A stretch of DNA of 64,000 nt from Gemmatimonadales bacterium (GTDB lineage: Bacteria; Gemmatimonadota; Gemmatimonadetes; Gemmatimonadales; GWC2-71-9), in the NCBI GenBank assembly GCA_050733075.1, contig JBOHSD010000002.1, positions 174,649 to 238,648 on the forward strand, given 5' to 3'. Each line of letters starts with the position of its first letter. The first letter of the stretch is position 1. Below the pieces are notes generated by a model. The model was not told the DNA's origin. It saw nothing but the letters and a program-made list of their open reading frames with translations, and did no database searches. The position numbers were made by a program, and so were the translations under genes. Positions 9,913-28,139 of this stretch are shown in pieces.

Positions 9913-10104
9913 CTACGATGCGATACCGATCGGAAACAGCACGCAATAGCCCAGGACCAGGATCACCGCGGCCGCGCTGGGATGGCCGGCGCGCAGGGTG
10001 AGGTACCCCGCTACCAACACCATGACCGCCACAGCGAGAATGATCAAGTTGCGTGGCGCCAGTAAAAAGTGCCGCGGTGGAGGAGAAGGGCGAGAATTTG
10101 GCAT
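9913..10104 (-). CDS. small two-TM membrane protein (DUF3098-like pattern)
   Basis: 63 aa with two hydrophobic helices (LIILAVAVMVLVAGYL and AVILVLGYCVLFPIGI). Lies 15 nt downstream of the peptidase gene. Family assignment is from memory only. Confidence 0.4.
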   Translation of the reverse strand: MPNSRPSPPPRHFLLAPRNLIILAVAVMVLVAGYLTLRAGHPSAAAVILVLGYCVLFPIGIAS

Positions 10105-10119
10105 AGACCATGGACGCTA

Positions 10120-11106
10120 TCACCGTTCCTTGCTGGGGTCAAGTTCAGGCGTTTCTGTGAGTTCGGGGGCAATCTCCCAGCCCTGATCGAGGGCGGCTCG
10201 GCGCACCCGGTCCGCCTTGCGCCGCCGCCGCAGCACTGCCCAAAGCACCAGGGCCAGTATGCCCCATCCTCCCCCAGCCAGGAGCCAGGTGGCCAGGCTG
10301 TAGCGCCGGCGAACCGCTCGCCGCCATTCTTCGTCGAATCGATCCACCGTGAGTCCGGTGGTACCGAGTACCGCCGCGTCGAAGTCCTCCCCGGCGGTTA
10401 ACCGCTCCAGGAGCGGGGTGAGCGTGCGGGACGGGTTTCGTCTCGCCAGCTCGGCTACCGCCGAAACCGCCAGCGCGTAGGCGGCGTCGGCCGTGCTCTC
10501 CGAGCCCCGCAGTGCTCCGTCCAGGGCACGGAGATCCGGCACCACACCACGCACTACTGCCAGGTTCAGCTCGAGCGAGCCCAGGCGCTCCCATTCGCCG
10601 GCGGCCCACGCGGCGTATCCCTCGTCGAACCACAATGGCACCCGGACCCGCACCGCCTGGTGTAACGCCAGGTGGGCGAGCTCGTGCCGCAAGGTGGCGT
10701 AGATATCTCCCCGGTCGGCGCGCAGCAGGATTGTTCGTGCACCAGGAACTGCAATGCCGGCACCCCAAGAGGGAGCGCGACCCGAGGTCAGGGAGTCGAG
10801 ATAGCGGCCGTCGGGAACGACGATGAGTCTCAGCGGGCCGGGATCCCGGCGGCCCAGGCCGGGCCACTCGGCAGGGCGGTCGGCACGTGCCGCAAGATCG
10901 CCCGCCAGCTTCATTTGGCCGGGCCAGGCGAGCACGGTCACCTGCCCTACCCTCATCACGGCGGCCTCGCCTTGCAGTGCCGCCAGATTCGATGCGGGGA
11001 GAAACAGCCAGAGAAGCCGAAGCACCAACCTGGGAAACAACGCTACGTGAGGGGACTGCGCGGGACTTCGCCTCCTGCTGAAGCAACGTCCAGCATCTCC
11101 TGGCAC
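10120..11106 (-). CDS. peptidase MA-type zinc metalloprotease with C-terminal TM anchor
   Basis: HELAHLALH (HExxH) followed by WFDEGYAAW (third-ligand Glu), as in gluzincins. C-terminal helix WLLAGGGWGILALVLWAVL. The true start is probably a TTG/GTG near 11040, just after the upstream stop. The ORF-track start overlaps the TPR gene by 64 nt. Confidence 0.65.
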   Translation of the reverse strand: MPGDAGRCFSRRRSPAQSPHVALFPRLVLRLLWLFLPASNLAALQGEAAVMRVGQVTVLAWPGQMKLAGDLAARADRPAEWPGLGRRDPGPLRLIVVPDGRYLDSLTSGRAPSWGAGIAVPGARTILLRADRGDIYATLRHELAHLALHQAVRVRVPLWFDEGYAAWAAGEWERLGSLELNLAVVRGVVPDLRALDGALRGSESTADAAYALAVSAVAELARRNPSRTLTPLLERLTAGEDFDAAVLGTTGLTVDRFDEEWRRAVRRRYSLATWLLAGGGWGILALVLWAVLRRRRKADRVRRAALDQGWEIAPELTETPELDPSKER

Positions 11107-11912
11107 CGTTTGGCCCAGGGGTTGAACTTGTTGGCCTTGTAACCTTCGGTCCAGACCTGTACCGCCTCTTCCCGCGCTCCACCCAGCCAGAGCGCCCGCC
11201 CCAGCTCGAAGTACGCCTCGATCAGATTGGGGCCCAGCTTGAGCGTCTTGCGCAGAAACGTTTGGGCATCCTCGTACATCTCCCGCTCCAGATAGACCAG
11301 CCCCAGGTAATAGTGCGCGTAGAGCGTGGCCTTTCGGTCGTTATCGAGTCGAATGGCCTTGGAGAGATGCTCGATAGCTTCGCCGAAAATCTGCTTCTTG
11401 AGACAAATGTAACCGACATTGATGCGGGCCAGCGCATTGGCCGGCTCCTTCATCAGCACCTTGGAGAAATTACCCAGGGCTTCATCATAGTCTTCGTTGA
11501 GCATCTGGGCCCAGCCCAGCAGAGACGTCGCCTGTACCGCGCCGGGTGAGAGCGCCAGCGCCTTCTCCAGTGCCTGAATGGCGGCCGGATGGTCGCCCAG
11601 CGAGATCAGGCTCCAGCCCTTCTCTATGTAGGTGGAAGCGCCGAGATGGTCGGCGTGCACTGCGGGAGCGGCTCCATTGAACTGGGGTGCCGGGCTGGTG
11701 TCGGCAACGCCGCTCGCCTGCTTGTAGCGCTCGACCAGGCTCCGGATCTCGTCCTTCATCTGCCCGAGGTCGGAGAGGGCCCCGTCCACCCGCTTGAACA
11801 GCGCGATGATATCGCGCTTCACCGCCTCCCGTTCCGCCGGGGCCGTGGCACCGACCCGGCCGGCAAGGTCCTGGAGCTGAGTCCGCATGGCGGTGAGCCA
11901 CTGATCGTTCAT
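11043..11912 (-). CDS. TPR-repeat protein (last TPR gene of the che operon)
   Basis: 289 aa with an N-terminal coiled-coil-like segment followed by TPR units (AIQALEKALALSPG, ALGNFSKVLMKEP, AIEHLSKAIRLDN, AQTFLRKTLKLGP). Its start abuts the cheW stop with zero gap. Confidence 0.75.
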   Translation of the reverse strand: MNDQWLTAMRTQLQDLAGRVGATAPAEREAVKRDIIALFKRVDGALSDLGQMKDEIRSLVERYKQASGVADTSPAPQFNGAAPAVHADHLGASTYIEKGWSLISLGDHPAAIQALEKALALSPGAVQATSLLGWAQMLNEDYDEALGNFSKVLMKEPANALARINVGYICLKKQIFGEAIEHLSKAIRLDNDRKATLYAHYYLGLVYLEREMYEDAQTFLRKTLKLGPNLIEAYFELGRALWLGGAREEAVQVWTEGYKANKFNPWAKRCQEMLDVASAGGEVPRSPLT

Positions 11913-12377
11913 CTACGCGGCCCCGAGGTTGTCCAGCGCCAGCCGCTCGGTAGATGAGAGCAGCTTGCGGGCGTTGAGGATGATGATGGTTCGCCCCGGA
12001 CGGGTGATGATACCCGAGATGTAAGCCGCAGCCAGGCCGCTGACCATGGGTCCGGGTGCCGCGATGGTCGTGGTATCGATCCGCATCACCTCGCGGACCT
12101 CGTCCACCAGCACCGCCACCCGCTGCGCCTCGAGCTCCAGCACCATGACTCGGGTCTCCTCCCGGATGACCGCCTCGACCTCGAACCGCTTGCGGAGGTC
12201 GATGACCGGCACGGCGCCGTCGCCGTAAGGCATCACGCCCTCCAGAAAATGCGGTGCCTTCGGTAGCGGCGAGGGTGCCGCATAGCGCAGAATGCGCTCG
12301 ACCTGGAGGATGTCCAGCGCGAACTCCTGCCGGCCGACCCGGAAGGTCACGACCTGGATATCGTCGCCGGTGTTCAT
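11913..12377 (-). CDS. cheW: CheW coupling protein (copy 3)
   Basis: 154 aa. VVTFRVGRQEFALDILQVERIL ... PHFLEGVMPYGDGAVPVIDLRKRF is a typical CheW fold sequence. Confidence 0.88.
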   Translation of the reverse strand: MNTGDDIQVVTFRVGRQEFALDILQVERILRYAAPSPLPKAPHFLEGVMPYGDGAVPVIDLRKRFEVEAVIREETRVMVLELEAQRVAVLVDEVREVMRIDTTTIAAPGPMVSGLAAAYISGIITRPGRTIIILNARKLLSSTERLALDNLGAA

Positions 12378-12805
12378 GCCGATATGGCCTCCGAGAAGCG
12401 GGAGCTGAGCGCGGCCAGATCCAGAAGCGGGACCAGCCCGTCGGGGTGGCGGGCAACGCCGATGGCCCAGGGAAGGGTTGAGCCGGGAGGGACCGGCAGC
12501 GCGGGCTCCCGGATAAGCACTTCGGCGTCGTCTATCTCGAGACAGACGGGCCGCCCGCCCAGGATCACCACGACAGCGAGATCTCCCACCACCGGCGGAC
12601 AGGCGGCCGCGTCCAGCAGGGCACCGAGATGAACGACCGGGACGAGCCGCCCGTGCAGCGCCACCACTCCACGCACTGCCGGTTCCATCGCCGGCACCGG
12701 GTGTACCCGGCCTATTTGGCTGACCTCGACCACATGGGCCAGCTCCAGCCCCACCCGCCGGCTGCCGGTTCGAACCAGCAGAAATCCGCTCCCAGCGCGA
12801 CTCAT
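12374..12805 (-). CDS. cheW: CheW-like protein (copy 2, divergent)
   Basis: 143 aa. [21 protein letters not shown] ... [21 protein letters not shown] has the CheW pattern. 4-nt overlaps on both sides. Confidence 0.75.
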
Positions 12806-13899
12806 CGAGGACTCAGCCGGGCCAACTCGGCCGCTACTCGGCCAGCGATTTCACTAACGGGGAGCACATATCGGGCGCCTCCGGCCTGAAAGGCGGCGCC
12901 CGGCATTCCGTAGATGGTGGCGGTCTCGCGGTCCTGCGCGATGCCGATACCGCCCGCATCGTGGATCTGCCGCAAGCCCTCGGCGCCGTCCCTCCCGATG
13001 CCGGTCAAGACCACGCCGATGGCGCGGGCGCCGAAGTGGCGCGCGACGCTGCCGAACAACGGATCCGCGGCCGGACGCACTCCCCACATGGTAGGCTCCT
13101 GGTTGAGGGCCACCCGGGCTCCTTGCGGTCCCGGGACGACGCGCATGTGGAAGTCACCCGGGGCCACATACGCAGTATCGGCCAGGACCGGCATCTCGTC
13201 GCGCGCCTCCACCACTCGGAAACGGCCCTGAGAGGCCAACCGGTCGGCCAGGCTCTGGGTGAACTTGGGAGGCATGTGCTGTACGATGAGCACCGTCGCC
13301 TCGAGCCCCGTAGGCAGATTCGGCACGATCTCGGCGAGCGCGCGAGGACCTCCAGTCGAGGCAGCCATGGCAACGCAGAGCCGCGCCTGACCGGGGGACT
13401 CGATTGGAGCATCCGGAGTCTCCTCGCGCTGGCGCCGTGACGACACCGCTAAACGCTTGACATCAGCCGAGCGGGCGGTTCGGAGCACGCCCAAGAGCCG
13501 TTCGGTGAAGCGAGCGGTGGCCGCTGGACCCCTCTCCTCTTCCTTGGCGACGAGATCTACCGCGCCCAGCTCCAGGGCCCGGATTGCGGCAGCGGCTCCG
13601 GCGCCAACGTGGGCGCTCACCACCACGATCGGGCGGGGGGACTCGGCCATGATGTATCCGATCGCGCCCAGTCCATCGAGCTCCGGCATCTCGAGATCCA
13701 TCAGCACCACGTCGGGCGCGTGGGCCCGCACTTTCCGGAGAGCGTCCATCCCGTCGCGCGCTGTGGCCACCACCCTGAACTCGCCCGATCCATCCACCAC
13801 TTCGGTAAGGAGACGGCGGAAGAACGGGCTATCGTCCACCACCAGCACCCGGCCCGGGTCAGAGCTGCTGAACACCGTGCGCCACCGTAATGACCTCAA
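12802..13899 (-). CDS. cheB: chemotaxis response regulator protein-glutamate methylesterase CheB
   Basis: 365 aa. Receiver domain ([23 protein letters not shown]) plus methylesterase domain ([25 protein letters not shown]). Confidence 0.92.
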
Positions 13900-14347
13900 C
13901 CCGCCCGTCGGAGACGCGGAGGCGGACAGTACGTCCGTAATCGCCCCCCACCGCTTCCCCCACGAGGGGAACGCCGTTCGTGCTCAGCACCTGGCGTGCC
14001 GCCACCAGATTGCGCTCACCCATTTGAACCGTCCCGGGAGGCGCCAGGGCCGAGAACATGCTGGCCCCGCCCGCCAGCCGAGCCGTGATGCGCTCGACCT
14101 GCGCACCCTCGGCGACCATCAGCTCCACCAGACGCGGCACCGCAGACTGGGGGAATTTGGCGGGGTTGCCTCCCCTCCGGCTCAACGCCGGTGACGGGAG
14201 CAGGACGTGCGCCAGGCCGCCCACCCGAGCTTCCGCATCGTACAGCAGAATGGCCACGCAGCTCCCCAGACCGACCGTGACGAGCGTGTCATCGGCCCCG
14301 CCGGTGCGGAGGTCCGCCACTCGCACCAGGACGTCCCGGCCGCTCAC
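13859..14347 (-). CDS. cheD: chemoreceptor glutamine deamidase CheD
   Basis: [30 protein letters not shown] is the CheD catalytic-Cys region. I place the start at GTG 14347-14345, which overlaps the cheR TGA as GTGA. The longer ORF-track start (14527) lies inside cheR. Confidence 0.85.
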
Positions 14348-15165
14348 GCCGTCCGCCGGTAGACCCGCTCGCGCGGGTCCAACAGGGTGAGCCGCTCGCG
14401 GGCCGGCCCGAACAGCGACTCGACCTTTCCCAGGACCAGAATGCCACCCGGCGCAAGCGCGTCGGCAAAGGCGAGGAACACCCGCTCCTGGGCCGCACGC
14501 CCGAAGTAAATGACGACGTTGCGGCAAAGGATGAGCTGATAGTGCTGCCGGGGCGGCGGCGCGCTGCAGAGATCGAGCACCCGCGGGAAGACCCGGCGGC
14601 GGACCCGCTCTATGACCCTATACCCCGCGCCGTCTTGCTCGAAATACCGGCCGACCAGGTCGGCCGGGAGATCGGCCAGAGCCTCCCTACGGTAGCGACC
14701 GTCCTGCACCCGCTGGAGGCATTCACGGTCGATGTCCGTGGCGTCCACGGTCACCCGCTCCAAGCGGTCGCCCAGGCCCTGGCGGTCCAGGTAATCGGCG
14801 ATCAGCACTGTGAGAGTATAGGGCTCCTCTCCCGAGGAGCAGCCCGCGCTCCAGGCGCGCACCTCGCCGCCGCTCGGGTCGCAGACCTCGTGCAGCAGTT
14901 TGGCGCGGAGCAGGTCCCAGGTCTCGGCGTTGCGATAGAACCTGGTGACGTTGATCGTGATGGCATCTTTGAGCAGCTCGTACTCGGCCGGACTGCGGTC
15001 CAGCAGGGCCTGGTAGTCGGGGTAGGTATGCACGCCGCACGCGCGCATCCTGACCGCTATGCGGCGGCGCAGACACTTGTCCTTGTAGGCATCGAGGCTG
15101 AGCCCGGCCTCTCGCGAGATCTTTCGCGTGAGGTCTGCAAACGCTGCTTCATCCGCGGAGCTCAC
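14344..15165 (-). CDS. cheR: chemotaxis protein methyltransferase CheR
   Basis: 273 aa. NVTRFYRNAETWD and RAWSAGCSSGEEPYTL are SAM-binding CheR signatures. Confidence 0.92.
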   Translation of the reverse strand: MSSADEAAFADLTRKISREAGLSLDAYKDKCLRRRIAVRMRACGVHTYPDYQALLDRSPAEYELLKDAITINVTRFYRNAETWDLLRAKLLHEVCDPSGGEVRAWSAGCSSGEEPYTLTVLIADYLDRQGLGDRLERVTVDATDIDRECLQRVQDGRYRREALADLPADLVGRYFEQDGAGYRVIERVRRRVFPRVLDLCSAPPPRQHYQLILCRNVVIYFGRAAQERVFLAFADALAPGGILVLGKVESLFGPARERLTLLDPRERVYRRTA

Positions 15166-16778
15166 TGGGCCAGGTCCAGCATCTCGAGATTGGCCCGGGC
15201 CAGCTGATGGCCCGGATTGAGCGAGGTGGCCTGGGCCCAGCTTTCCCGGGCTCGCGTGTGATCCCTCTTCTTGTAGGCGATGTTGCCCAGCTTGAAATAC
15301 AGATCGTCGCCCAGCTCCGGGTTGAGCTTGGCCGCTCGCTCGTAGGCTTCCGCCGCCTCTTCGTAACGCCCGTTCCGGTAGAGGATGTCCGCCAGGTTTT
15401 TGGAGACCTGGGGCAAGGTGGGGTCCTCGGACAGTGCGGTGCGAAGCATGGCCTCGGCGGCCTCGATATCGCCGGCCAACTCCAGCAGCACCGCCAGGTT
15501 GTTCTGCAACACCGCGTTGTTGGGAAAGGCGGCCACTCCCTCCCGGGCTGACTTCAGCGCCCCTTCGGCATCGTCCAATCCCGCGCTGGCCAGGCTGGCG
15601 GCCCAGTACCAGAGTGCAGGCCTGGGCTTGCCGTTGAGCAGCTCGCAGGCGCGGGTCAGACGCGCCAGCGCCACCTTGTGATCGCCCCGCTTCAAGGCAA
15701 CGATGCTCCAGCCCAACATGATGCGGGCGTCGTCGCGCGCCCGTCCGGCAGCGTCGCCGTACGCGGCTTCGGCCTCATCCAGCCGGCCAAGCTGCTCCAG
15801 AGCAAACCCGAGATTGTGCAGCGCCGCCGGCTTGGGGACGCCCGAATCCGACGCCTGGCGCAGCGCCCCGGCAGCCTCGTCCCACCGCGCCTGCCGGATA
15901 GCGATGAGTCCCAGAAACAGCGGCGCGCTGCTGTCGGAGGGCCGCAGATCCGTCACCCGGCGGAACTCGCGCAGCGCTTCCTCCAGCATCCCCGCCTTGT
16001 AAAAGGCTATCCCCAGGTTGCGGTGTTCTTCCACCCGGCTGTCGTTGGCCTTGGGTGCGGCGGCAGTGGACGTGCCCACCCGGTGGGCAAACCCTGCCGT
16101 GATGAGGCCGTACAACGCCTTGCCCACCTCGAACTCGACCAGCCCTGATTCCTCGATGAGCTGCTGGACGTCGCGGGTGCCGTCGATCAGCGGCAGGAGC
16201 CGCTGCTGCTCGGACGAAAGGGTGGGCGCCGACTGTCCGATGTGATCCTGGTCGACCGAGAAGATCAGATCGAACGAGGGGACCTTCTTCTCTATGAGAC
16301 TCCACTCGTCCACTCGCCGGGCCCCCTCGAGGAGAAGCGCCTCGGGACTGATCCGGACCAGGAAATCCTCGCTCTCCGGCCGGACGCCAGCCTCGAAGTT
16401 GAAGGTTCCCGAGGTCCAGGTGAACAGGTAGTAGACCGCCTCCTCGATCTGAATGCGCATGTACTCCTCGAGCTCGGCGCGGGTCAGCGTTCCCTTGCCG
16501 ACGAGGATCTCCCCCAGCTTGTGCTCCCGATCGTCTTCCTGGGCGGCGATTGCCTGTTGCAGCTGCTCCGCGGTGATGCGGCCCTTGCGGATCAACAGGT
16601 CGCCCAGCCGGTCACGGCGATTGACGATGGAGGCGAACGTGATGAGACCTTCATCCAGATAGATGGTCCCGAAGTTGTGCCGGTCGGCGAGAGCCAGGCA
16701 CCCGGTGCGGCGACCCAGAAAGAGGAGCTGGATCACGTCCGGGAGACTGGCCTCCTTGAGGCTGCCCTTGATGGCCAT
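15162..16778 (-). CDS. PATAN/DUF4388-domain protein with C-terminal TPR repeats
   Basis: Start taken at [30 protein letters not shown] (TGATG junction with the upstream stop at 16778). This N-terminus is the DUF4388/PATAN signature. The C-terminal half has about 8 TPR units. Confidence 0.8.
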   Translation of the reverse strand: MAIKGSLKEASLPDVIQLLFLGRRTGCLALADRHNFGTIYLDEGLITFASIVNRRDRLGDLLIRKGRITAEQLQQAIAAQEDDREHKLGEILVGKGTLTRAELEEYMRIQIEEAVYYLFTWTSGTFNFEAGVRPESEDFLVRISPEALLLEGARRVDEWSLIEKKVPSFDLIFSVDQDHIGQSAPTLSSEQQRLLPLIDGTRDVQQLIEESGLVEFEVGKALYGLITAGFAHRVGTSTAAAPKANDSRVEEHRNLGIAFYKAGMLEEALREFRRVTDLRPSDSSAPLFLGLIAIRQARWDEAAGALRQASDSGVPKPAALHNLGFALEQLGRLDEAEAAYGDAAGRARDDARIMLGWSIVALKRGDHKVALARLTRACELLNGKPRPALWYWAASLASAGLDDAEGALKSAREGVAAFPNNAVLQNNLAVLLELAGDIEAAEAMLRTALSEDPTLPQVSKNLADILYRNGRYEEAAEAYERAAKLNPELGDDLYFKLGNIAYKKRDHTRARESWAQATSLNPGHQLARANLEMLDLAQ

Positions 16779-19326: not shown

Positions 19327-19331
19327 TCCAG

Positions 19332-20140: not shown

Positions 20141-21003
20141 CCGTGCCGCCCCAGCCATTCGCGCGCCTCCTTTGCCCCGCGTTCGGCCATCAGGCCGAGC
20201 CGTGCCATTGGCAGCGAGGGATCGCCCACCGTGAGCAGGACCGTGTCGGAGGTGGGCGCAACCAGGAACAGGTTTCCTGCGGGCGACTCAACGGCGATCG
20301 CCTGCCAGGCACCCAGGCCCAACAAGCGACTCGTCCTCGAGGCCTCTTTCGAGACACCGGCGAGCTCGGCGGCCACCCGGTCGCCCACATCTTCCCGGCC
20401 GGGGCTGCTCAGCGTGCCGGTAAGCCGGAGTCCGTTGGCGTCAACCAGCATCGATGCCTGGTTCCCGCTCTCCAGGGTCGGAAACTCCGCGGTGGCGACG
20501 GCGCCACTTTCCAGGGGAGTGGCAGCCGGTAGCGTCGGAGCAGCCCCGGCCGTAGCGCTCACCGGTTCGTTTCGAGCCGGCGACCGGTCATGGCGGGCCT
20601 CGCGGCCCTCGGCTCTGACGCGCTCCAGGGCCTGAACGATCGACTGGTCGTCGGGGTCGATCTCGGCCGCGCGCTCCAAGTGCTCCAGTGCCGCCGCCAC
20701 ATCACCCGCGCGGAAATACAGGAAGGCAATTCCCTTGAGGGCTCCGAGGTGCATCGGGTCGAGGCGGAGAGCCTCGACCAGGGCGTCGAAGGATCCGGCC
20801 AGGTCGCCTTGATCGCTCAGGATTCGGCCGACCAGATCGTGGGCATCGGCGAGTCCGGGATACCTGCTCAGGCCTCCACGCGCCACCTTGTAGGCCGCAT
20901 CCAGCTGCCCGCGCCGGCGCAAAGCTTCCCCCAGCTCCAGAAAGGCGAGGCTGGAGGGCTCATCGGCCAGTCGGGCCGTCAGTGCGCGTATGGGGTCAGT
21001 CAC
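20137..21003 (-). CDS. TPR - Roadblock/LC7 fusion protein
   Basis: N-terminal TPR units (AAYKVARGGLSRYPG, SFDALVEALRLDP, AALEHLERAAEIDP), then a linker. The C-terminal part, ASMLVDANGLRLTG...AIAVESPAGNLFLVAPTSDTVLLTVGDPSLPMARL, resembles Roadblock. Confidence 0.65.
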   Translation of the reverse strand: MTDPIRALTARLADEPSSLAFLELGEALRRRGQLDAAYKVARGGLSRYPGLADAHDLVGRILSDQGDLAGSFDALVEALRLDPMHLGALKGIAFLYFRAGDVAAALEHLERAAEIDPDDQSIVQALERVRAEGREARHDRSPARNEPVSATAGAAPTLPAATPLESGAVATAEFPTLESGNQASMLVDANGLRLTGTLSSPGREDVGDRVAAELAGVSKEASRTSRLLGLGAWQAIAVESPAGNLFLVAPTSDTVLLTVGDPSLPMARLGLMAERGAKEAREWLGRHG

Positions 21004-22042
21004 GGTAACTCTCGAGCTCCTCGGCCAGGGTTTCCGCCGCCTCTCTCAGGCGCTCGACTTCCGGCGCCAGCGCCTCCTCGCCGGGCGTTCGCGTGCCCAG
21101 CCGAGCCCAGCTGCTCCAGGTTTCCGCGGCGCTGCGGAAGCGGCCCAGCGACGCCTGGCACAGGCCGAACAAGCGCCGCGCCTCCGGCATTAGCGGATCC
21201 GAACGCAACACCTCCTGGAGTACATTGGCCGCCTTCTGGTACTCCCCCGCGGCCAATGCCCGGCGGACCGGGGCAAGCGAGGTAGCCTGATCCGACGCGT
21301 GGTCACGCGGGGCCGCGGCGGGTCCGCCGTCCAGGACGACCACGCCGGCGGCGGACAGCGCATATACCGTCCGGGCGACGTCGAACTCCGAGCGCCCGAG
21401 GGCTGCGGCAAGCGCATGGAGGTCGCGCTGGCCGTCCACCGCAGCGAGCACCTCCCACTCGAACGGCACCAGGTCGAGCCTTCCGCCCGCCGCGCTGTCG
21501 GACGGTGGCAGTCGCGGGACCAGGCGCAGGTGGGGAACTTTGGCTTCGATCCGAGACCACTCGTCCATGCGGCGGGCGGCCTCCATGAGGAGCACCTCGG
21601 TGGGAATCCGAACCGGGGCCTGCACCATCGCCTCGCACGGGGCCCCCTCCTCGAAACGGAAGTACCCCTCCGACCAGTTCATCAGCTCGAAGATCGCCTC
21701 CTCGATCTGGGCCTTGAGTTGCCGGTCGAGCTCGCGCCGCGCGATGGCCCCGGTGGAGACCAGGATGTCTCCTAGGCGCCGGGAGTCTCCGGATTCCTGG
21801 AGGGCGAGCGCCTGCTCGAGCTGCTGCGCGGTGATCTTTCCGGAGCGAACCAGTCGGCCGCCGAGAGGTTGCGGGTCCCTTCCCAGCGCCGCAGCCACCA
21901 CCCCACCCCGTTCGAAGGACACCGTTCCGCCGGTCTGACGCAGCTCGGAGGTGATCCGCAGCACCCCGCTCTTCCGGCCGAGGTCGAGCAGCTGGAAGAC
22001 GTCCTGAATGTGCAGCTCCTTGAGAGGCCCCTCGAGCGCCAC
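20996..22042 (-). CDS. PATAN/DUF4388-domain protein with C-terminal TPR-like region
   Basis: MALEGPLKELHIQDVFQLLDLGRKSGVLRI ... GDILVSTGAIARRELDRQLKAQIEEAIFELMNWSEGYFRFEEG parallels the N-terminus of the 15162-16778 protein. Confidence 0.8.
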   Translation of the reverse strand: MALEGPLKELHIQDVFQLLDLGRKSGVLRITSELRQTGGTVSFERGGVVAAALGRDPQPLGGRLVRSGKITAQQLEQALALQESGDSRRLGDILVSTGAIARRELDRQLKAQIEEAIFELMNWSEGYFRFEEGAPCEAMVQAPVRIPTEVLLMEAARRMDEWSRIEAKVPHLRLVPRLPPSDSAAGGRLDLVPFEWEVLAAVDGQRDLHALAAALGRSEFDVARTVYALSAAGVVVLDGGPAAAPRDHASDQATSLAPVRRALAAGEYQKAANVLQEVLRSDPLMPEARRLFGLCQASLGRFRSAAETWSSWARLGTRTPGEEALAPEVERLREAAETLAEELESYRD

Positions 22043-22045
22043 GGC

Positions 22046-24778
22046 TCAGCCCGCCGCCGCAAAGATGTGTTGCAGATCGCGGGCGGAACGGGCCCGGCTT
22101 CGGGCTTCGGTGGCGAACGGCCCGTCCGGGTCGAGCTGGATGACACGCTCCCAGACCTGCACCGCCCGATCGAACTGCCGTTGCCGCGCGAAGCACGTGC
22201 CCTGGTGGTAGAGCGCAGCCGCGTGCTCGGGATCGAAACGCAGCACCCGGGAAAAGGCCTCGAGCGCCTGGGTGGTTCGTCCGTCTTCGAGCAGGGCCTG
22301 GCCCAGCGCCGTCAGCGCCTCCAGCTCGTAGGGATCGGCTTCCAGGATCCGTACCAGCACCGGGATCGCCGCCCGGGGAGCCTCGGTGCGGCGGATCAGA
22401 TCGGCGAGTGCGAGCGCGGCCGGGCCATAGGTCGGCAGCAGATCGAGCGCACGCTCATACGCCGAACGCGCGGCCGCCCAGTTGTGCCGCTCCTCCTCCA
22501 TCTCTCCGAGCTCACACCATACGCGAACCAGCGACGGATCGAGCTGAAGGGCGGCGTTGAAGGCGGCCAACGCGGCGGCCCGGTCGCCCAGGCGGACCGA
22601 GGCCTGGGCCTGGAGATGGAAGAGGTCGGGCCGCCCCGGCGCGAGTGACTGCGCCTCTCGAATGCAGTCGAGCGCACCGATGGCATCTCCCACAGCCAAC
22701 CGGACCCGCGCCCGGGCTAGGAGCACCTCGATGTCGCCCCGTACCCGGGAAGCGAGATCGTCCGCCAGCGAGACAGCGTCCTTGGCCCAACCAAGAGCGA
22801 GCAGGGCCCGAATCTCGCCCAGGGTAGCGTCGGGGTCGGTGGGTACCAGGGCTCGCGCTTCGCGGTAGCGCTCGAGCGCCTCCCCGTATAGCCCGCGCCT
22901 GGCGAAGATGTCGCCCTTAAGAACCACCGTCGCTCCCCGGGGCGCGCCCCTTGCCGCCGCCCGGGACAGCTCGGAGCCCGCGAGATCCAGCAGGCCTTTG
23001 GCGATGAGCTCGCGCGCGGAGTCGAGCGATTCGTCGGTCTGGTCTATGGCAGCCGCCGTCTGAGGTGGGGCGAGCTCCTCGAAAAGGCGATCGAGCGCGG
23101 GCGAATCGAAGCTGAACTCGCCGGCGAGCTCCTCCCCGCTGACCTCGGCCGTCAGCTCCGGCGCGATCGCGATGGTCGGATCTTCGTACTGCAGGTCTAT
23201 CGTCAACGCGAATTTCTGCGGCACGTACAAGGGCTCCAGCTCCAGGGCTCGCCGGGTTTCCCGCAACGCGGCATCGAAGTCGCCCAACTGGCTGAGCACG
23301 AAGCTCAGGTTGTAGTGGGCCGCCGCGAAGTCCGGCTCGGCATCCACCGCGCGCCCGAAAGCGTTGCGCGCGTCCTCGTAGCGTTTCAGCTCCATGAGAA
23401 CCAGGCCCACCCCGTTCCAGCCGACCGCACTGGACGGCTGCTCGGCGAGGGCGCGTTGATACTCTTCCAAAGCGCTCTTGTGCTGGCGGCGCTGGAGTAG
23501 AAGGAGGGCCAGATTGAGCCGGGCCGTGAACAGCGGCCGGGAGCCTCCCAGCGCCTGGCGGAACGCGGCCACTGCTCCATCGCTGGATGGCTCGCTTGCC
23601 CGGATGACTCCCAGGTTGTTCCAGGCGAGCTGGTATGCAGAATCGGCGCCGACGGCTTTTTCGTAGGAGTCTAGCGCTTCGGCGCGCCTGCCCGCCTGGT
23701 GGAGGCATACGCCGCGCTCGTTCCAGAGCTTGGGCGAATCGGAGTCCTCAGCCACCAGAGCGTCGTATAGCTCGAGCGCAACCGTGAGATCCCGCCTCAG
23801 CAGGTGAACCTCGGCCATCGCCTGCAGGTTGAGGCGCCGGTCCTCGCCGGCGTCCAGCGCCTGCTGGTACTCGCGGAGCGACTCCTCGTGATAGCCCTTC
23901 TGACGGAGGGCCACGCCGAGGTTGTAGTGCGCCAGCGGGGCACCCGCGACCGGCTGCGGGGCAGCGGGGCAGCGGGGCAGCGGGGAGGTTGACTCATACC
24001 TGGGATGTGGCATGCCATTCCGTCCTGTTGCCCCGCTGCCCTGCTGCCCTGCTTGCGAGCGGTCCAGCGCCAGGTTGGCCTGAGCGCGCGCCAGCATCGG
24101 ATTGAGCCCTATGGCTCGCTTGGTCGCCGCCCGGGCTGCCTCATGCTGGCCCAGGTCGCCGTAGACGAAGGCCAGCAGATAGTGCGCTTCGGCGTAATCG
24201 GGGTTTCGGGCAATGGCTTCCTGCAGTGCGGCGAGCGCGGGCTCGTTGAGACCGCGGTTGTAGAGCACTTCACCGTACTGGAAGCGGGCGACCGGGTTGG
24301 CGGGATCCTGAGTGCAGGCCCGGCTCAGCCACTCGCTGGCTGCGTCGAGCCGCCCGCGAGCCTTGTGGGCGAGGCCCAGCTGAAGCATGGCCGGAACATC
24401 TTCAGGGTGGCTCGCGAGCAACGCCTCGAACTCGGCCACTGCCTCTTCGTGCCGGCCTATGGTAGCGTAGGCCCTGCCGAGCTCCCACCGGGCTTTGCGA
24501 TCGTTGGGACGGCGGCGGGCTTCCTGGACGAGATCGGCGATCCGCCGATCGTAGTGACCGCTGTCGCGGTACGCGATCTCCAGGTTGGTTTGCGCCACCT
24601 GCATCCTCGAGTCGAGCTCGAGCGCCCGGGCAAACTCGGCGATGGCCTCTTCTACCAGCCCTTTTTGATAGTAGAGAACGCCGAGGTTGTTGTGGGCTCC
24701 CGCGTCGGAAGGATCGATCCGGCGGGCAAACGAGCGGAGCACCGTGAGGTCGCGCTCCGACAGTGCAGGGGCCGGCAT
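22046..24778 (-). CDS. large TPR-repeat protein (910 aa) carrying an in-frame repeat element
   Basis: TPR units run through the whole ORF. There is a low-complexity linker (SQAGQQGSGATGRNGMPHPRYESTSPLPRCPAAPQPVAG) encoded by the 23954-24056 palindromic element. 3-nt gaps to cheC and to the PATAN gene. Confidence 0.75.
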   Translation of the reverse strand: MPAPALSERDLTVLRSFARRIDPSDAGAHNNLGVLYYQKGLVEEAIAEFARALELDSRMQVAQTNLEIAYRDSGHYDRRIADLVQEARRRPNDRKARWELGRAYATIGRHEEAVAEFEALLASHPEDVPAMLQLGLAHKARGRLDAASEWLSRACTQDPANPVARFQYGEVLYNRGLNEPALAALQEAIARNPDYAEAHYLLAFVYGDLGQHEAARAATKRAIGLNPMLARAQANLALDRSQAGQQGSGATGRNGMPHPRYESTSPLPRCPAAPQPVAGAPLAHYNLGVALRQKGYHEESLREYQQALDAGEDRRLNLQAMAEVHLLRRDLTVALELYDALVAEDSDSPKLWNERGVCLHQAGRRAEALDSYEKAVGADSAYQLAWNNLGVIRASEPSSDGAVAAFRQALGGSRPLFTARLNLALLLLQRRQHKSALEEYQRALAEQPSSAVGWNGVGLVLMELKRYEDARNAFGRAVDAEPDFAAAHYNLSFVLSQLGDFDAALRETRRALELEPLYVPQKFALTIDLQYEDPTIAIAPELTAEVSGEELAGEFSFDSPALDRLFEELAPPQTAAAIDQTDESLDSARELIAKGLLDLAGSELSRAAARGAPRGATVVLKGDIFARRGLYGEALERYREARALVPTDPDATLGEIRALLALGWAKDAVSLADDLASRVRGDIEVLLARARVRLAVGDAIGALDCIREAQSLAPGRPDLFHLQAQASVRLGDRAAALAAFNAALQLDPSLVRVWCELGEMEEERHNWAAARSAYERALDLLPTYGPAALALADLIRRTEAPRAAIPVLVRILEADPYELEALTALGQALLEDGRTTQALEAFSRVLRFDPEHAAALYHQGTCFARQRQFDRAVQVWERVIQLDPDGPFATEARSRARSARDLQHIFAAAG
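23954..24056. repeat. inverted tandem-octamer element inside the TPR ORF
   Basis: Left arm is CTGCGGGGCAGCGGGGCAGCGGGGCAGCGGGGA. A less GC-rich core of about 40 nt follows. Right arm is TGTTGCCCCGCTGCCCTGCTGCCCTGCTTGC, an imperfect reverse complement. Confidence 0.8.
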
Positions 24779-24781
24779 GGA

Positions 24782-25402
24782 TCAGCTTAGGCGGATAGCG
24801 TCGAAAATAGACCGCAGCGAGGCCACGTCGGGCAGCAGCAGGAAATGGCCTCCCAGCGATTCGGCGGCGCCTTCCACCCGGAACGAAGTTTCGACACAGA
24901 AGGCATGGTCCCGGTCATGACCGAAGTTCAGGTGAGCCGACATGAGGATGGCCCCACTCAGGTCGATCACCAGACTGGGCACCGAAGGTACCAGCATCAT
25001 CCCCATGAAGTCGCTGAGCGCGTTCAGATACGCGCTGGCCAGGATGTTGCCGGCCTCCTTCAGGCTGGACTGCTCCATCGGGTCGAAGGATTGGGTGGTA
25101 CCGGGCTCGCGCCGCAGCAGGAAGTCGCAGAGCGTTCGCGCGGCAGGCTCCGGGAACAGCAGCAGGGCCCGGCCGGTGAGATCGCCCATCATGTGCATGA
25201 GGATCGCGGCGGTGACGCTATCGGGGGGGCCGACCATGTCGCGGGCGTCTTCCAGCGGACGCACGTTGACCCGGGGCACAGTGATCATGATGGTGCGATT
25301 GGTCATCTGGGACAGGGCGGTGGCAGCGTGCCCGGCGCCGATGTTGGCGACCTCGCGCATGGCGTCGAGCTGCGACTCCTTCAGGTCACGCACGTCTTCC
25401 AT
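24782..25402 (-). CDS. cheC: CheY-P phosphatase CheC
   Basis: 206 aa. LDAMREVANIGAGHAATALSQM and SLKEAGNILASAYLNALS are the duplicated CheC motifs. Confidence 0.88.
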   Translation of the reverse strand: MEDVRDLKESQLDAMREVANIGAGHAATALSQMTNRTIMITVPRVNVRPLEDARDMVGPPDSVTAAILMHMMGDLTGRALLLFPEPAARTLCDFLLRREPGTTQSFDPMEQSSLKEAGNILASAYLNALSDFMGMMLVPSVPSLVIDLSGAILMSAHLNFGHDRDHAFCVETSFRVEGAAESLGGHFLLLPDVASLRSIFDAIRLS

Positions 25403-25411
25403 GCTTTCCTC

Positions 25412-27298
25412 CTACAGGAGCGCCGCGGCGTCCAGGATGAGCGCCGGCGCACCATCCGCGAGAATCGTCGCCCCCCCGACGAAGGGCGGCAGTCCCTCAG
25501 GGGCATCGAACGGCTCGACTACGATGTCCTGCTGGCCCAGCAGGGCGTCTACCACCAGAGCGGCGCGGCGTTCTCCGACTTCCAGGATGACTGTCGGCCG
25601 CTTGGCCGGCGTGCCGTTGGATCGGGCCGAGACCAGGTGACGGAGGTGGACCGTAGGAATCACCTGCTCCCGGACGACCAGGGCCTCGCGGTCCCGCAAC
25701 GAGGTGACCGCCCGCGCGTCGAACTCGACCGTCTCGGCGACGTAGGCCAGCGGCACCGCGTAACGCTCGCCCCCGGCCTCGGCCAGCAACGCCCGCACGA
25801 TCGCCAGGGTGAGGGGCACCCGGATCAAAAAGGTGCTCCCGCGGCCCATCTCGCTGCGCACTTCCAGGGTTCCGCCCAGCGCCCGGACCCGCGTCATGGC
25901 CACATCCACTCCCACGCCCCGCCCCGATACGCCGCTGACCGCCTTGGCGGTGCTGAACCCAGGCCGGGCCAGGACCCGGACCAGCAGGTCGTCGGTCAGG
26001 GCCTCCACGTCCTGGGGTGCCGCGCCCTCCCGGCGAGCCTGGTCGAGAATTCGCTCCCGGTCGATCCCCCGACCGTCGTCCGTCACCCGAAGCGCGACAG
26101 TGTTGCGTTCCCGGGTAGCGGAGAGGAGGATCCGGGCTTCTGCCGGCTTACCCGCTGCCATGCGCTGTTCCGGCGACTCGATCCCGTGATCGGCAGCGTT
26201 GCGGATCAGGTGCAGCAGCGGGTCGCCGATCTCGTCCAGAATCGAGCGGTCGAGCTCGATCTCCTCGCCTTCCATGTCGAACCGGATCCGCTTTCCCAGA
26301 TCACGCGCCAGGTCGCGCACCAGCCGGGGGAACCGCTCGAACACCTCACCCACCGGAGTCATCCGGGCGGCCAGGACCTCGCCTTGCATTGCCGACACCA
26401 GCCGGGAGATGCGCTCGCTCAGCTCGGTAAGGGTGGGATCCGCCGCCTCGCTCGAGAGCACGACGAGGCGGTTCTTGGCGACCACGAGCTCGCCGACCTG
26501 CTTCATCAGCGCGTCCAGCCGGCGGAGAGCCACCCGGATCTGCCGGCCCTGCGACGCGCCGTTGGCCTCCGCCACGGCTTCCCCAAACTGCACCGCTTCG
26601 ACGTCTCCGACGGCAGCGAGCGTCGCTGCTATCTCCGCGTCCGGACGCCGGGTGTGAAGCCGGAAGCTGAACCGGCCATCGAACTCGTCTCGTTCCAGTT
26701 GAGCCGCGGGTGGCCGTAGACCGCTCACGGCACCCAGGCCTTCGGCGCGCCGGAGCACCAGCGCAGCTCTAGCTCCTCGCATCACGGCACCGGGCCGGAT
26801 GACTACCTGAACCGGCCGCAAGCGAGCGGCGTCGGAGGCTCGCCGATTCCTGGCACCCTCGGGATCAGCCGCCGCGGCGGACGGCCCGGGCCGGCTCGGC
26901 ACCGCGGCGGCATCGGCTTCCTTACCGGAGGCAGCGGAGTCGAGCTCGGCGATCAGCTCGTGGTCGGGCTCCTCGTCGGTTCCTGCCGCAGCCGCCTCGA
27001 CCGATTCACCCAGCCGGTCCACCGCACGGAACAGGAGCTGGAAGACGGTGGGCGTGGCCGGCGCTCGGCCATGCCGGAGCCCGTCCAGCAGGTTCTCGGT
27101 GGCGTGCGCGAGCTGGGCGACGGCGCCATACCCCATGGTCGCCGCCATCCCCTTGATGGTATGGATAGCGCGGAAAAGGCGGCCCACCGGCTCGAGCGAC
27201 GCCGGCTCCCGCTCCCATTCCAGCAGCGACCCGTTACACGCACTGAGATGCTCACGACTCTCGGCAAGAAAGAGAGCGGCGTACTGGGACAGGTCCAT
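25412..27298 (-). CDS. cheA: chemotaxis histidine kinase CheA
   Basis: 628 aa. Hpt domain (LFRAIHTIKGMAATMG), dimerisation region, HATPase (HLIRNAADHGIE, DDGRGID, GRGVGVDV) and a C-terminal CheW-like domain. Confidence 0.95.
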   Translation of the reverse strand: MDLSQYAALFLAESREHLSACNGSLLEWEREPASLEPVGRLFRAIHTIKGMAATMGYGAVAQLAHATENLLDGLRHGRAPATPTVFQLLFRAVDRLGESVEAAAAGTDEEPDHELIAELDSAASGKEADAAAVPSRPGPSAAAADPEGARNRRASDAARLRPVQVVIRPGAVMRGARAALVLRRAEGLGAVSGLRPPAAQLERDEFDGRFSFRLHTRRPDAEIAATLAAVGDVEAVQFGEAVAEANGASQGRQIRVALRRLDALMKQVGELVVAKNRLVVLSSEAADPTLTELSERISRLVSAMQGEVLAARMTPVGEVFERFPRLVRDLARDLGKRIRFDMEGEEIELDRSILDEIGDPLLHLIRNAADHGIESPEQRMAAGKPAEARILLSATRERNTVALRVTDDGRGIDRERILDQARREGAAPQDVEALTDDLLVRVLARPGFSTAKAVSGVSGRGVGVDVAMTRVRALGGTLEVRSEMGRGSTFLIRVPLTLAIVRALLAEAGGERYAVPLAYVAETVEFDARAVTSLRDREALVVREQVIPTVHLRHLVSARSNGTPAKRPTVILEVGERRAALVVDALLGQQDIVVEPFDAPEGLPPFVGGATILADGAPALILDAAALL

Positions 27299-27301
27299 GA
27301 A

Positions 27302-27664
27302 TCAGGCCAGGACGCGCTGAACCGCCTCGAGCACCCGGGATGGTTGGAACGGCTTGACCACGAAGTCCTTGGCTCCTGCCTGGATCGCCTCGACCACCAG
27401 AGCCTGCTGTCCCATCGCGCTGCACATCAGAATCCTGGCTTCGGGATCGTCCTTGCAGATCTCGCGCACCGCCTCGATCCCGCCCATGTCCGGCATGACG
27501 ATGTCCATGGTGACGAGGTCAGGCTTGAGCACCCGGTACTTCTCGACCGCCTGCAAACCCGACTCCGCCTCACCCACGATCTCGAACCCGGCCTGGCTCA
27601 GGATGTCGCTGATCATCGTGCGCATGAAGATGGCGTCGTCGCACACCAGCACAGTTTGGTTCAC
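27302..27664 (-). CDS. cheY: single-domain response regulator CheY
   Basis: 120 aa. VLVCDDAIFMR, LVTMDIVMPDMGG and KDFVVKPF. 3-nt gap to cheA. Confidence 0.92.
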   Translation of the reverse strand: MNQTVLVCDDAIFMRTMISDILSQAGFEIVGEAESGLQAVEKYRVLKPDLVTMDIVMPDMGGIEAVREICKDDPEARILMCSAMGQQALVVEAIQAGAKDFVVKPFQPSRVLEAVQRVLA

Positions 27665-27701
27665 GGACTTCCTCCGGGCATGTTAGCGGGGCGGCGACCA
27701 T

Positions 27702-28139
27702 CTAGGCTCCGATGATCGGCGCGAACAGTGCGTCCACATCGAGCAGAATGAAATGCCGATCCGCTGCGAGGCCGACCGCCTTCACCAGCCGGGGGTCTAC
27801 CCCGGGAAGGTCCCGGCGCTCGACTACCGAGCCACCGGGTAGCTCCAGGAAGTCGAGGACCTGTCCGACTCCGAGACCGTAGCTCCGGCCCTTGACCTCG
27901 AGCACCACGATGGCGCCCTCATCGGCCTGGCGCCGCGGCTGCTGAAGCAGCAGGTGGCCATCGAGTACGGTCAGCAGGCTGCCGCGAACGTTGACCAGAC
28001 CTTCCACCGCCTCGGACACACCCGGAATCCGGGTGGCCGTCAGGCGAGGGAGGATCTCACGCACGATCCCTGCCGGGGCCGCGCAAACGACCTCACCGAT
28101 CCGAAAGATGACGGCGTGAAGCGCGGGAGGGTTAGCCAT
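27702..28139 (-). CDS. cheW: CheW coupling protein (copy 1)
   Basis: 145 aa. AVIFRIGEVVCAAPAGIVREIL ... VEGLVNVRGSLLTVLDG. Its start overlaps the rluD stop by 8 nt. Confidence 0.85.
   Translation of the reverse strand: MANPPALHAVIFRIGEVVCAAPAGIVREILPRLTATRIPGVSEAVEGLVNVRGSLLTVLDGHLLLQQPRRQADEGAIVVLEVKGRSYGLGVGQVLDFLELPGGSVVERRDLPGVDPRLVKAVGLAADRHFILLDVDALFAPIIGA

Follow-up and report, generated by a model that had tools for sequence, protein, structure and literature searches.

An MglA/MglB GTPase module nested in an F1-like chemosensory gene cluster of Gemmatimonadota and other phyla

In Myxococcus, the Frz chemosensory pathway acts on MglA/MglB polarity (PMC3441718). Here, we describe a gene cluster from a soil bacterium of the phylum Gemmatimonadota (a Gemmatimonadales metagenome-assembled genome, MAG) in which chemosensory (che) genes enclose an MglA/MglB module. 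The cluster lies on the minus strand at positions 11043-28139 of a 64-kb stretch of contig JBOHSD010000002.1, hereafter the window. Its gene order is cheW-cheY-cheA-cheC, followed by TPR910-PATAN/TPR-TPR/Roadblock-Roadblock-MglB-MglA-DnaA-like AAA+-PATAN/TPR and then cheR-cheD-cheB-cheW-cheW-TPR289. The GTPase block is thus nested between the kinase half and the adaptation half of the che genes, as a preliminary description of this DNA had noted. On balance, we favour the view that the cluster is an operon-encoded, cross-phylum supermodule, with a Group-1 MglA polarity switch wired directly into a complete F1-like Che pathway.

The cluster resembles the Frz pathway and its MglA/MglB partners (with RomR-RomX and MglC) in combining a chemosensory pathway with a Group-1 MglA and a Roadblock GTPase-activating protein (GAP), and in having extra Roadblock paralogues, comparable to MglC, and TPR effectors, comparable to SgmX. 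It differs in several respects. The Frz and mgl loci are separate in M. xanthus, whereas here the genes share one predicted operon. Frz uses the CheA-CheY fusion FrzE, together with FrzZ and FrzCD, whereas this cluster encodes separate CheA and CheY proteins along with CheC and CheD, and neither a CheA-CheY fusion nor a dual-receiver protein. RomR, RomX, FrzS and AglZ are absent from the cluster, and two PATAN-TPR proteins and an AAA+ protein are added. By analogy, we regard the cluster as a putative functional counterpart of the Frz-to-Mgl system and not as a member of it.

Three other types of system share parts of this composition. In the cyanobacterial Tax/Pix systems, whose PatA-type (PATAN-REC) regulators control type IV pili, PATAN likewise occurs inside a che-like operon, and the insertion in our PATAN domains resembles the N-terminal motif of PilB/MshE. 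Here, PATAN is fused to TPR rather than to a receiver, MglA/MglB are added, and CheC, CheD, CheR and CheB are among the che products. The F1 systems of Thermotoga, Bacillus and Archaea have the same core Che proteins with CheC and CheD and a CheY like that of T. maritima, and their 44H class of methyl-accepting chemotaxis proteins (MCPs) may be shared as well, but in our cluster eight non-Che genes separate cheC from cheR, a TPR gene follows cheB, and flagellar or archaellar genes are not adjacent. The actinobacterial conservons (CvnA-D) are also operons encoding a histidine kinase, a Roadblock protein and an MglA-family GTPase. Their GTPase, in contrast, belongs to Group 2 and lacks the arginine finger, their kinase is a membrane sensor, and they contain no Che, PATAN, TPR or AAA+ component.

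In a 2014 survey, PATAN genes appeared only now and then beside the gene for Group-1 MglA, Gemmatimonas aurantiaca being one example, and che or DnaA-like neighbours were not mentioned (PMC4316618). For G. aurantiaca, its Table S2 gives MglB>MglA> at GAU_1115 and PATAN>MglA>-PATAN> at GAU_1409 (Wuichet 2014, PMC4316618), and neither locus mapped unambiguously onto our cluster. The preliminary description knew of no system with this composition, and we likewise found none in the full-text literature, a search that left most subscription papers outside. The parts are known (F1 Che proteins, Group-1 MglA/MglB, Roadblock, PATAN, TPR and DnaA-type AAA+ proteins), as is the logic of Che-to-MglA signalling. 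As far as the searched literature shows, what is new is the nested architecture in a predicted single operon and its conservation over Gemmatimonadota, Edwardsbacteria and Zixibacteria (partially in TA06), together with the presence of PATAN-TPR adaptors bearing cyclic di-GMP (c-di-GMP) motifs in a che operon and a DnaA-derived AAA+ family.

Conservation of the nested gene order

Using MglA as a probe, with one genome per species, we collected 80 loci of 20 kb and searched them by tblastn with the 18 window proteins. Comparison of the neighbourhoods around mglA orthologues recovered the same nested order, with che genes on both sides of mglA, in 29/29 Gemmatimonadota loci with sufficient flank. 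With its repeats in other phyla, this places the arrangement far beyond chance. Collinearity was broken in no cluster-bearing locus, the shorter ones keeping the matching partial order up to the contig end. Across these loci, MglA identity falls from 96% to about 63% (66% at the lowest in Gemmatimonadota and 63-64% in Edwardsbacteria-like loci), that of CheA to about 36%, that of TPR910 to about 28% and that of the other proteins to 30-50%. Below about 62% MglA identity, in Acidobacteriota, Eisenbacteria, Myxococcota and others, only an ordinary mglB-mglA pair was present.

Within this fixed order, individual genes come and go. Four loci from Gemmatimonadota/Gemmatimonadaceae MAGs (L054, L055, L057 and L060) have no DnaA-like gene, with the second PATAN gene about 200 nt after mglA. 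The first three also lack cheD, and L060 stops short of that position. The TPR-Roadblock orthologue of L054 consists of Roadblock alone (124 aa). cheB and two cheW genes are missing from three loci, and cheW-2 from several related lineages. A single-AAA+ form of the DnaA-like protein is encoded in four loci (one named Longimicrobium) and in the Edwardsbacteria-like L063. Two loci labelled as Acidimicrobiia (L011) and Alphaproteobacteria (L058) carry cluster genes 70-82% identical to those of Gemmatimonadales and are probably mis-binned contigs; the hits in L058 are fragmented in a way suggestive of frameshifts.

Loci from other phyla were found by searching with the single-AAA+ protein of L063. 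The resulting family comprises proteins of 435-532 residues with Bac_DnaA as their sole recorded Pfam hit, from Candidatus Edwardsbacteria, TA06, Zixibacteria and further MAGs. On the left, these loci read CheY-CheA-CheC, a ~900-aa protein, PATAN/TPR, TPR/Roadblock, Roadblock, a 182-aa protein and a 197-aa protein; on the right, DnaA-like, PATAN/TPR, CheR-CheD-CheB, a ~284-aa TPR protein and CheW. In four of them, the cluster is followed by cheW and then two MCP genes, behind which two loci have a further CheW and a Ser/Thr kinase; MCP genes of 44H-like length come after the cluster wherever the contig extends far enough. Orthology by BLAST is position-specific. MglA is 61-65% identical, the first PATAN protein matches the first and the second matches the second (about 36% over its full length), and identity for TPR910 is 28-33% across about 900 residues. 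For TPR289, it is about 40%, the orthologue being placed between cheB and cheW-MCP.

Two partial variants were also observed. L090 (LDZT01008347.1, GC 33%, 5846-19059) holds the left half, MCP(SBP_bac_5)-CheW-CheY-CheA-CheC-TPR910-PATAN with three Roadblock proteins (TPR/Roadblock, Roadblock and an MglB-like Roadblock), followed by a lipoprotein TPR gene and ribosomal genes. Neither mglA, a DnaA-like gene, the second PATAN gene nor cheR/D/B was found nearby, and its CheY is 77% identical to that of the window despite the very different organism. L084 (TA06 MAG GCA_016208585.1, 140-7597) is a partial right half, in which a gene for a 986-aa AAA_16 and TPR protein occupies the place of mglA and precedes DnaA-like-PATAN2-CheR-CheD; the contig is short, and mglA may lie further upstream. 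The existence of these variants suggests that the supercluster is composed of two sub-modules.

Proteins of the cluster

All 18 open reading frames (ORFs) of the preliminary description were recovered on the minus strand at the same coordinates. Searches of the window proteins against Pfam, NCBIfam and PDB sequences bore out every domain call at profile level, including the MglA, Roadblock and PATAN assignments, with evidence beyond Pfam needed for mglB and the TPR-Roadblock gene (Table 1).

Table 1 Genes of the nested cluster and the adjoining peptidase gene in the window.
Gene or product	Position	Strand	Supporting match
cheW-1, 145 aa, first cluster gene	27702..28139	-	Pfam CheW E 3e-21
cheY, single-domain response regulator, 120 aa	27302..27664	-	Pfam Response_reg E 2e-30
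cheA, histidine kinase, 628 aa	25412..27298	-	Pfam Hpt, P2, H-kinase_dim, HATPase_c, CheW
cheC, CheY-P phosphatase, 206 aa	24782..25402	-	Pfam CheC E 5e-21; NCBIfam CheC_Thermotogales E 1e-49
TPR910, multi-TPR, 910 aa	22046..24778	-	many TPR families; conserved N-terminal peptide
PATAN1, DUF4388/PATAN + TPR, 348 aa	20996..22042	-	Pfam DUF4388 E 2e-32
TPR + C-terminal Roadblock, 288 aa	20137..21003	-	TPR_2 E 2e-13; Robl_LC7 21.9 bits
Stand-alone Roadblock/LC7, 121 aa	19793..20158	-	Robl_LC7 E 1.4e-8, 34.8 bits; PDB 7f8m E 3e-5
mglB-like Roadblock, GAP candidate, 153 aa	19332..19793	-	PDB MglB 6h5b E 1.4e-7
mglA, Group-1 small GTPase, 200 aa	18724..19326	-	M. xanthus MglA 5ymx E 1.3e-73
DnaA-derived double AAA+ protein, 649 aa	16778..18727	-	Bac_DnaA x2 E 5e-92
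PATAN2, DUF4388/PATAN + TPR, 538 aa from ATG 16778	15162..16778	-	DUF4388 E 6e-35
cheR, methyltransferase, 273 aa	14344..15165	-	Pfam CheR E 5e-44 + CheR_N
cheD, 162 aa from GTG 14347	13859..14347	-	Pfam CheD E 6e-25
cheB, methylesterase + receiver, start 13875 or 13848	12802..13875	-	CheB_methylest E 4e-62 + Response_reg
cheW-2, 143 aa	12374..12805	-	Pfam CheW E 8e-17
cheW-3, 154 aa	11913..12377	-	Pfam CheW E 6e-33
TPR289, coiled-coil N-terminus + TPR, 289 aa	11043..11912	-	TPR families
Peptidase_MA_2-like, signal peptide, HELAH, C-terminal TM helix	10120..11028	-	Pfam Peptidase_MA_2 E 6e-11

The Che core comprises CheA, CheW, CheY, CheR and CheB plus the auxiliary proteins CheC and CheD, the combination of the F1 class of chemosensory systems, reportedly described by Wuichet and Zhulin in 2010. 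CheA has the domain order Hpt-P2-dimerisation-HATPase-CheW and no receiver domain. The best NCBIfam models are haloarchaeal (F1-derived) for CheA and CheY and those of Thermotogales for CheC. CheY is the best conserved protein of the cluster (82-93% identity within the phylum and 74-77% in other phyla) and matches T. maritima CheY (1tmy) with an E-value of 5e-50, archaeal CheYs matching as well. Between the hairpin-tip motif and the C-terminus, the in-cluster MCPs of other phyla have about 167-174 residues; this fits ~22 heptads per arm and, as a length estimate, is 44H-like. The core looks F1-like, by resemblance only.

MglA matches its T. thermophilus counterpart with an E-value of 2.5e-65 in the PDB sequence search and is 58-61% identical to MglA of the Myxococcota and Acidobacteriota loci. 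Group-1 MglA proteins are defined by an intrinsic arginine finger beside the G2 threonine and a TVPGQ G3 motif (Wuichet & Sogaard-Andersen 2014, PMC4316618). The window protein has the P-loop GPGRSGKT, the arginine finger DRT (in TDRTLFFDF) and TVPGQ, and a cognate mglB lies adjacent. By these sequence features, it is an unambiguous Group-1 MglA.

The mglB-like gene stops 5 nt before mglA. Its product has no Pfam hit, and the NCBIfam MglB model (E 6e-8) falls far below its cutoff. In the PDB, it matches MglB structures only (E 1.4e-7), and a profile of its orthologues aligned to the Roadblock profile at 92.5% with hhalign. With a Roadblock fold and similarity to MglB, it is a candidate GAP for MglA. 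The orthologues keep a C-terminal amphipathic helix, DFExELxxxLxxLF, in which F139, L147 and F151 are nearly invariant; this helix may be likened to the regulatory C-terminal helix of M. xanthus MglB. The TPR-Roadblock protein similarly scores 21.9 bits against Robl_LC7, for which the cutoff is 23, and its orthologue profile aligned to Roadblock at 98% (hhalign). Its positional orthologues in other phyla (L081-L086) give confident Robl_LC7 hits.

Both PATAN proteins exceed the cutoff of 38 bits for the NCBIfam c-di-GMP_motif model NF053729, with 46 bits for PATAN1 and 47.5 bits for PATAN2. The MshEN motif has 24 residues, RLGxx(L/V/I)(L/V/I)xxG(L/V/I)(L/V/I)xxxxLxxxLxxQ, and is tandem in MshE. 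PATAN1 has one such motif in its insertion, RLGDILVSTGAIARRELDRQLKAQ, and PATAN2 has a tandem pair of 24-residue motifs; both sets are kept in other phyla. In alignments, the insertion pairs with MshE-N of V. cholerae (5htl) and with the N-terminus of PilB (5tsg). Both are therefore predicted carriers of c-di-GMP motifs. As in PatA-type proteins the PATAN domain is N-terminal, but the C-terminus consists of TPR in place of a receiver, with no Response_reg hit. In Synechocystis, PATAN binds PilB and PilC and is the output of the chemotaxis-like systems (bioRxiv 10.1101/2021.06.11.447907).

TPR910 carries a conserved N-terminal peptide (24700-24778). It reads LSERDLxVLRSFARRIDPSDAGAHNNLGV in Gemmatimonadota, SPEEQxILRSFRxRIDPxDAxAHNNLGV in other phyla and ISEAEKKVLKSFAQRIDPKDAGAHNNL in the GC-33% lineage, so that the motif is kept from there to this lineage with a GC content of 67%. 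FliM and FliY bind CheY~P through an N-terminal peptide, LSQEEIDxLL. The resemblance of the TPR910 peptide to this sequence is a lead and no result, because the pattern is short and low in information. A precedent comes from M. xanthus, where SgmX, with 14 TPRs, activates type IV pili and has both MglA-GTP and a CheY-like domain as binding partners (PMC9811614).

The AAA+ protein, which has a 100% identical counterpart in a Gemmatimonadales MAG, is organised as a first AAA+ domain, a private helical domain, a second AAA+ domain, a disordered linker and a C-terminal helix with the motif WP..R..E. In an AlphaFold2 model (predicted local distance difference test, pLDDT, 84), a helical bundle likewise separates two AAA+ domains, and the C-terminus forms a helix. 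Like DnaA and Hda, it has the AAA+ domain III fold with Walker A and B, the box VII arginine and sensor II. Domain III of B. subtilis DnaA is matched by the N-terminal half with an E-value of 1e-54, and in the predicted model the first AAA+ domain superimposes on it with a TM of 0.93 and a root-mean-square deviation of 1.5 Å. Identity of the first AAA+ domain to genuine DnaA domain III is 43-50%. In 52 sequences drawn from several phyla, no variation occurs in Walker A, Walker B or sensor II R207, and at least 90% keep box VII R158.

The family departs from DnaA and Hda in other respects. Its gene is always between mglA and PATAN2, and Pfam searches found no domain I, no Bac_DnaA_C (domain IV) and no Hda clamp-binding motif in the protein or its family. 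The NCBIfam DnaA match spans model positions 102-330 only, and in a precomputed Pfam list family members carry Bac_DnaA alone, whereas true DnaA hits add PF11638 and PF08299. The private helical domain has conserved residues including E259, F260, F263, W289 and G293; searched alone, it matched only 242 clusters among 1.84 billion representatives. All Foldseek matches of the model were to DnaA or to generic double-ring AAA+ proteins (p97 and Rix7), and the search is silent on the middle domain. The C-terminal helix, W637-P638...R643..E646, ends in acidic residues, and this acidic C-terminus is plausible as a ligand of a TPR domain of the cluster.

The protein had been described as doubly DnaA-like. 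Two Bac_DnaA domains are indeed present here, but this doubling is specific to Gemmatimonadales, where it elaborates on an ancestral protein with a single AAA+ domain. The insertion point of the second AAA+ domain lies after the private helical domain and before the C-terminal tail. The single-AAA+ members of Edwardsbacteria, Zixibacteria and TA06 lack 13 residues of the initiator-specific motif that the double-AAA+ proteins of Gemmatimonadota retain (window residues 87-99). This loss argues against a conserved role in binding single-stranded DNA and for one in ATP-dependent oligomerisation or switching. Judged from sequence, the protein defines a small, dedicated, DnaA-derived family without a DNA-binding domain.

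Packing, borders and genomic neighbourhood

The largest gap in the cluster, taking the best start codons, is the 37 nt between cheW and cheY, in agreement with the preliminary description. Ten overlapping junctions had been claimed; we count 9-10, of 1-22 nt and of the ATGA, GTGA or TGATG types. Relative to the longest ORFs, three starts were corrected: PATAN2 to 16778, which agrees with the orthologue N-terminus MAIKGS; cheD to the GTG at 14347, which yields a 4-nt overlap with cheR; and cheB to 13875 or 13848. The ATG of the 121-aa Roadblock gene at 20158 is preceded by a strong Shine-Dalgarno sequence, AAGGAGG.

A pattern scan of 9500-29400 found no sigma-70-like promoter site and three weak terminator-like hairpins against 7.9 expected from shuffled sequence, but such a scan carries no information in this phylum. 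A single transcript, on which the genes would be co-transcribed, is compatible with the overlapping junctions and with the absence of convincing terminators. An Rfam scan of the region found only tRNA-Val, with no c-di-GMP or other riboswitch.

The limits first given for the array did not hold as such, since tight co-directional packing runs past both borders. Upstream, the rluD stop overlaps the cheW-1 start by 8 nt, and rluD is joined by lspA, ileS, a phosphorylase gene and divIVA. The cluster of an Edwardsbacteria-like metagenome contig (L088) starts cheW-cheY-cheA, with unrelated efflux and type IX secretion system (T9SS)-substrate genes upstream. Because the cluster starts at cheW in two phyla with differing upstream genes, cheW is taken as the true 5' border. 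Downstream, a gene for a Peptidase_MA_2-like membrane protein begins 2-17 nt after TPR289. It holds the same cluster-end position in 30 Gemmatimonadota loci (34-71% identity), adjoins cheW-3 where TPR289 is absent and was not seen in the cluster loci of other phyla. It is a lineage-specific nineteenth gene, whose membership of the cluster is uncertain. The longest ORF in that interval, 10145-11182 (345 aa, no Pfam hit), was discarded as the downstream neighbour, being in the wrong frame relative to the real gene at 10120-11028.

The peptidase gene is followed by tRNA-Val, a TPR protein gene, tRNA-Asp and mraW-ftsI-murE-murF-mraY. The flanks in other phyla consist of efflux genes, MCPs and a Ser/Thr kinase, so the rluD and division/cell-wall (dcw) neighbourhood is specific to Gemmatimonadota, and the dcw/divIVA genes were rejected as a general functional link. 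tRNA-Val(TAC) at 9769-9843 (-) and tRNA-Asp(GTC) at 7776-7851 (-) flank the TPR protein gene at 7907-9769 (-), which encodes 620 aa with a weakly FlgO-like N-terminus; its true start lies further downstream because tRNA-Val overlaps the nominal one. The interval from tRNA-Asp to mraW showed no mraZ ORF.

Genes for MCPs, pili or flagella were not found anywhere in the 64-kb window. A defence system was considered and rejected, PADLOC having returned only generic TPR and P-loop hits. Elsewhere in the window, LigD is split into three adjoining minus-strand genes within 45693-48888, encoding a 3'-phosphoesterase (45693-46889), an ATP-dependent ligase (46946-47947) and a primase-polymerase (47944-48888). 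No Ku was recognised beside it, the next ORF (48885-49496) having no Pfam hit, and a stand-alone receiver protein is encoded at 49503-50003. Two large ORFs are at 42841-45726 (+, 961 aa, a weak DUF7363 hit only) and 55888-57453 (-, 521 aa, no Pfam hit).

A Che-to-MglA model and its alternatives

The che genes make up a full pathway, and the embedded genes encode a full GTPase switch (MglA, a GAP and further Roadblock partners) along with candidate scaffolds and effectors. Because the interleaved order is kept across phyla in different neighbourhoods, the Che and GTPase sets appear to work together, and this deep, position-specific conservation supports the functional coupling put forward in the preliminary description. 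We consider it likely that the che and mgl parts are integrated as a Che-to-MglA polarity switch in which, by analogy with Frz, signals would pass from Che to the GTPase. Input would come from 44H-like MCPs, presumably encoded elsewhere in this genome but at the cluster end in other phyla, and would reach CheA through CheW, with receptor adaptation by CheR, CheB and CheD. CheA would phosphorylate the single-domain CheY, and CheC would dephosphorylate it. CheY~P may then dock on the embedded module and not (or not only) on a flagellar switch; candidate docking sites are the N-terminal peptide of TPR910, an SgmX-like TPR protein, and the Roadblock or PATAN-TPR proteins.

Docking could shift the GTP/GDP state or the location of MglA. 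MglB would act as the GAP, and the TPR-Roadblock and Roadblock proteins would be MglC-like adaptors or partners as co-GAP or guanine nucleotide exchange factor (GEF). MglA-GTP, with the TPR and PATAN-TPR proteins, would activate or relocate a polar motility machine; type IV pili are the most likely such machine by analogy, and we propose this output only tentatively. The alpha-clip insertions of the PATAN proteins, with their MshE/PilB-type motifs, may provide c-di-GMP as a second input. The AAA+ protein could be an ATP-dependent oligomeric scaffold or timer that docks by its acidic C-terminal tail.

Several observations weigh against this model. In every locus examined, the surroundings of the cluster are free of pilus, gliding and flagellar genes. 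In cyanobacteria, a receiver domain ties PATAN to CheA; the PATAN proteins here have none, and the resemblance between the TPR910 and FliM peptides carries little information. The left half in L090 has no adjacent mglA, so a neighbouring MglA is not strictly needed. The CheY is of the classical flagellar/archaellar F1 type, and Gemmatimonas aurantiaca is flagellated, so that the Che core could serve ordinary swimming chemotaxis.

These last points lead to an alternative that we regard as unlikely, namely that this is an ordinary F1 flagellar chemotaxis operon in which the embedded block acts in parallel or upstream and is not the target of CheY~P. The block could, for example, serve to place or inherit the chemoreceptor array or the flagellum at a pole, as ParC/ParP or FlhF/FlhG do in other bacteria. 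The window CheY is about as near to the flagellar CheY of T. maritima as F1 CheYs usually are (E 5e-50), CheC, CheD and MCPs that look 44H-like are typical of F1 systems, and G. aurantiaca swims with flagella. In other phyla, TPR289 has cheB, cheW and MCP genes around it, a setting that would suit an array-associated protein. On the other hand, neither the window nor any related locus contains a flagellar gene, and characterised Group-1 MglA and PATAN proteins act on type IV pili, gliding and polarity, never on flagella. A CheY of this type can be rewired to a type-IV-pilus-like motor, as archaeal F1 systems demonstrate.

A more specific form of the Che-to-MglA model can also be drawn, in which F1 CheY~P docks directly on the SgmX-like TPR scaffold through the FliM-like peptide (LSERDLxVL / SPEEQxIL) and the DnaA-derived ATPase couples polarity to the nucleotide or replication state. 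As a whole, we hold this to be quite improbable.

It is very improbable, in our judgement, that the cluster relays environmental signals to the cell cycle, or else to polar growth, division or budding, with the AAA+ protein contacting DnaA through AAA+ contacts as Hda does and MglA setting the polarity of division or budding. Such a role would fit the close similarity of the N-terminal AAA+ domain to DnaA domain III (43-50% identity, with Walker A/B and the arginine finger intact) and the location of the Gemmatimonadota cluster between divIVA-ileS-lspA-rluD and mraW-ftsI-murE-murF-mraY. Budding, in addition to fission, is also reported for Gemmatimonas. However, the dcw/divIVA neighbourhood is absent from other phyla, the single-AAA+ members lack the 13 residues of the initiator-specific motif, and the AAA+ protein has neither a clamp-binding motif nor a DNA-binding domain. 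Four Gemmatimonadota lineages, moreover, lack the DnaA-like gene yet keep the rest of the cluster.

That the che genes and the mgl block are unrelated neighbours on one strand is scarcely credible: rluD and the peptidase gene, both adjacent, are evidence that packing as tight as this also occurs here between unrelated genes, but a position-specific order has outlived divergence to 28-40% identity in at least three phyla and in different neighbourhoods.

For the Che-to-MglA model, the significance lies in gathering the parts. Crosstalk between Che systems and small GTPases has been studied mainly in Myxococcus, where these parts are scattered and the connectors FrzX, FrzZ, RomR, MglC, SgmX and FrzS were found singly. 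One conserved, predicted operon offers a complete candidate parts list for Che-GTPase coupling: a kinase, CheY, a phosphatase, the GTPase, its GAP, two further Roadblock proteins, two PATAN-TPR proteins with c-di-GMP motifs, a large TPR scaffold and a DnaA-derived ATPase. It makes a compact, testable model of Che-to-GTPase signalling in cultivable Gemmatimonas, and with it comes a new, small family of AAA+ proteins that derive from DnaA and would act outside replication origins. If CheY~P does dock directly on the TPR scaffold and the DnaA-derived ATPase couples polarity switching to the nucleotide or replication state, the cluster would be a direct and hitherto unrecognised bridge between chemotaxis, a Ras-like polarity GTPase, c-di-GMP and the replication-initiator family. 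The distribution of the cluster points to an association of Che systems with MglA that is older than the myxobacterial case and extends further; if this more specific form of the model is true, the Che-Mgl supermodule would be ancient in the group formed by Gemmatimonadota, Zixibacteria and Edwardsbacteria.

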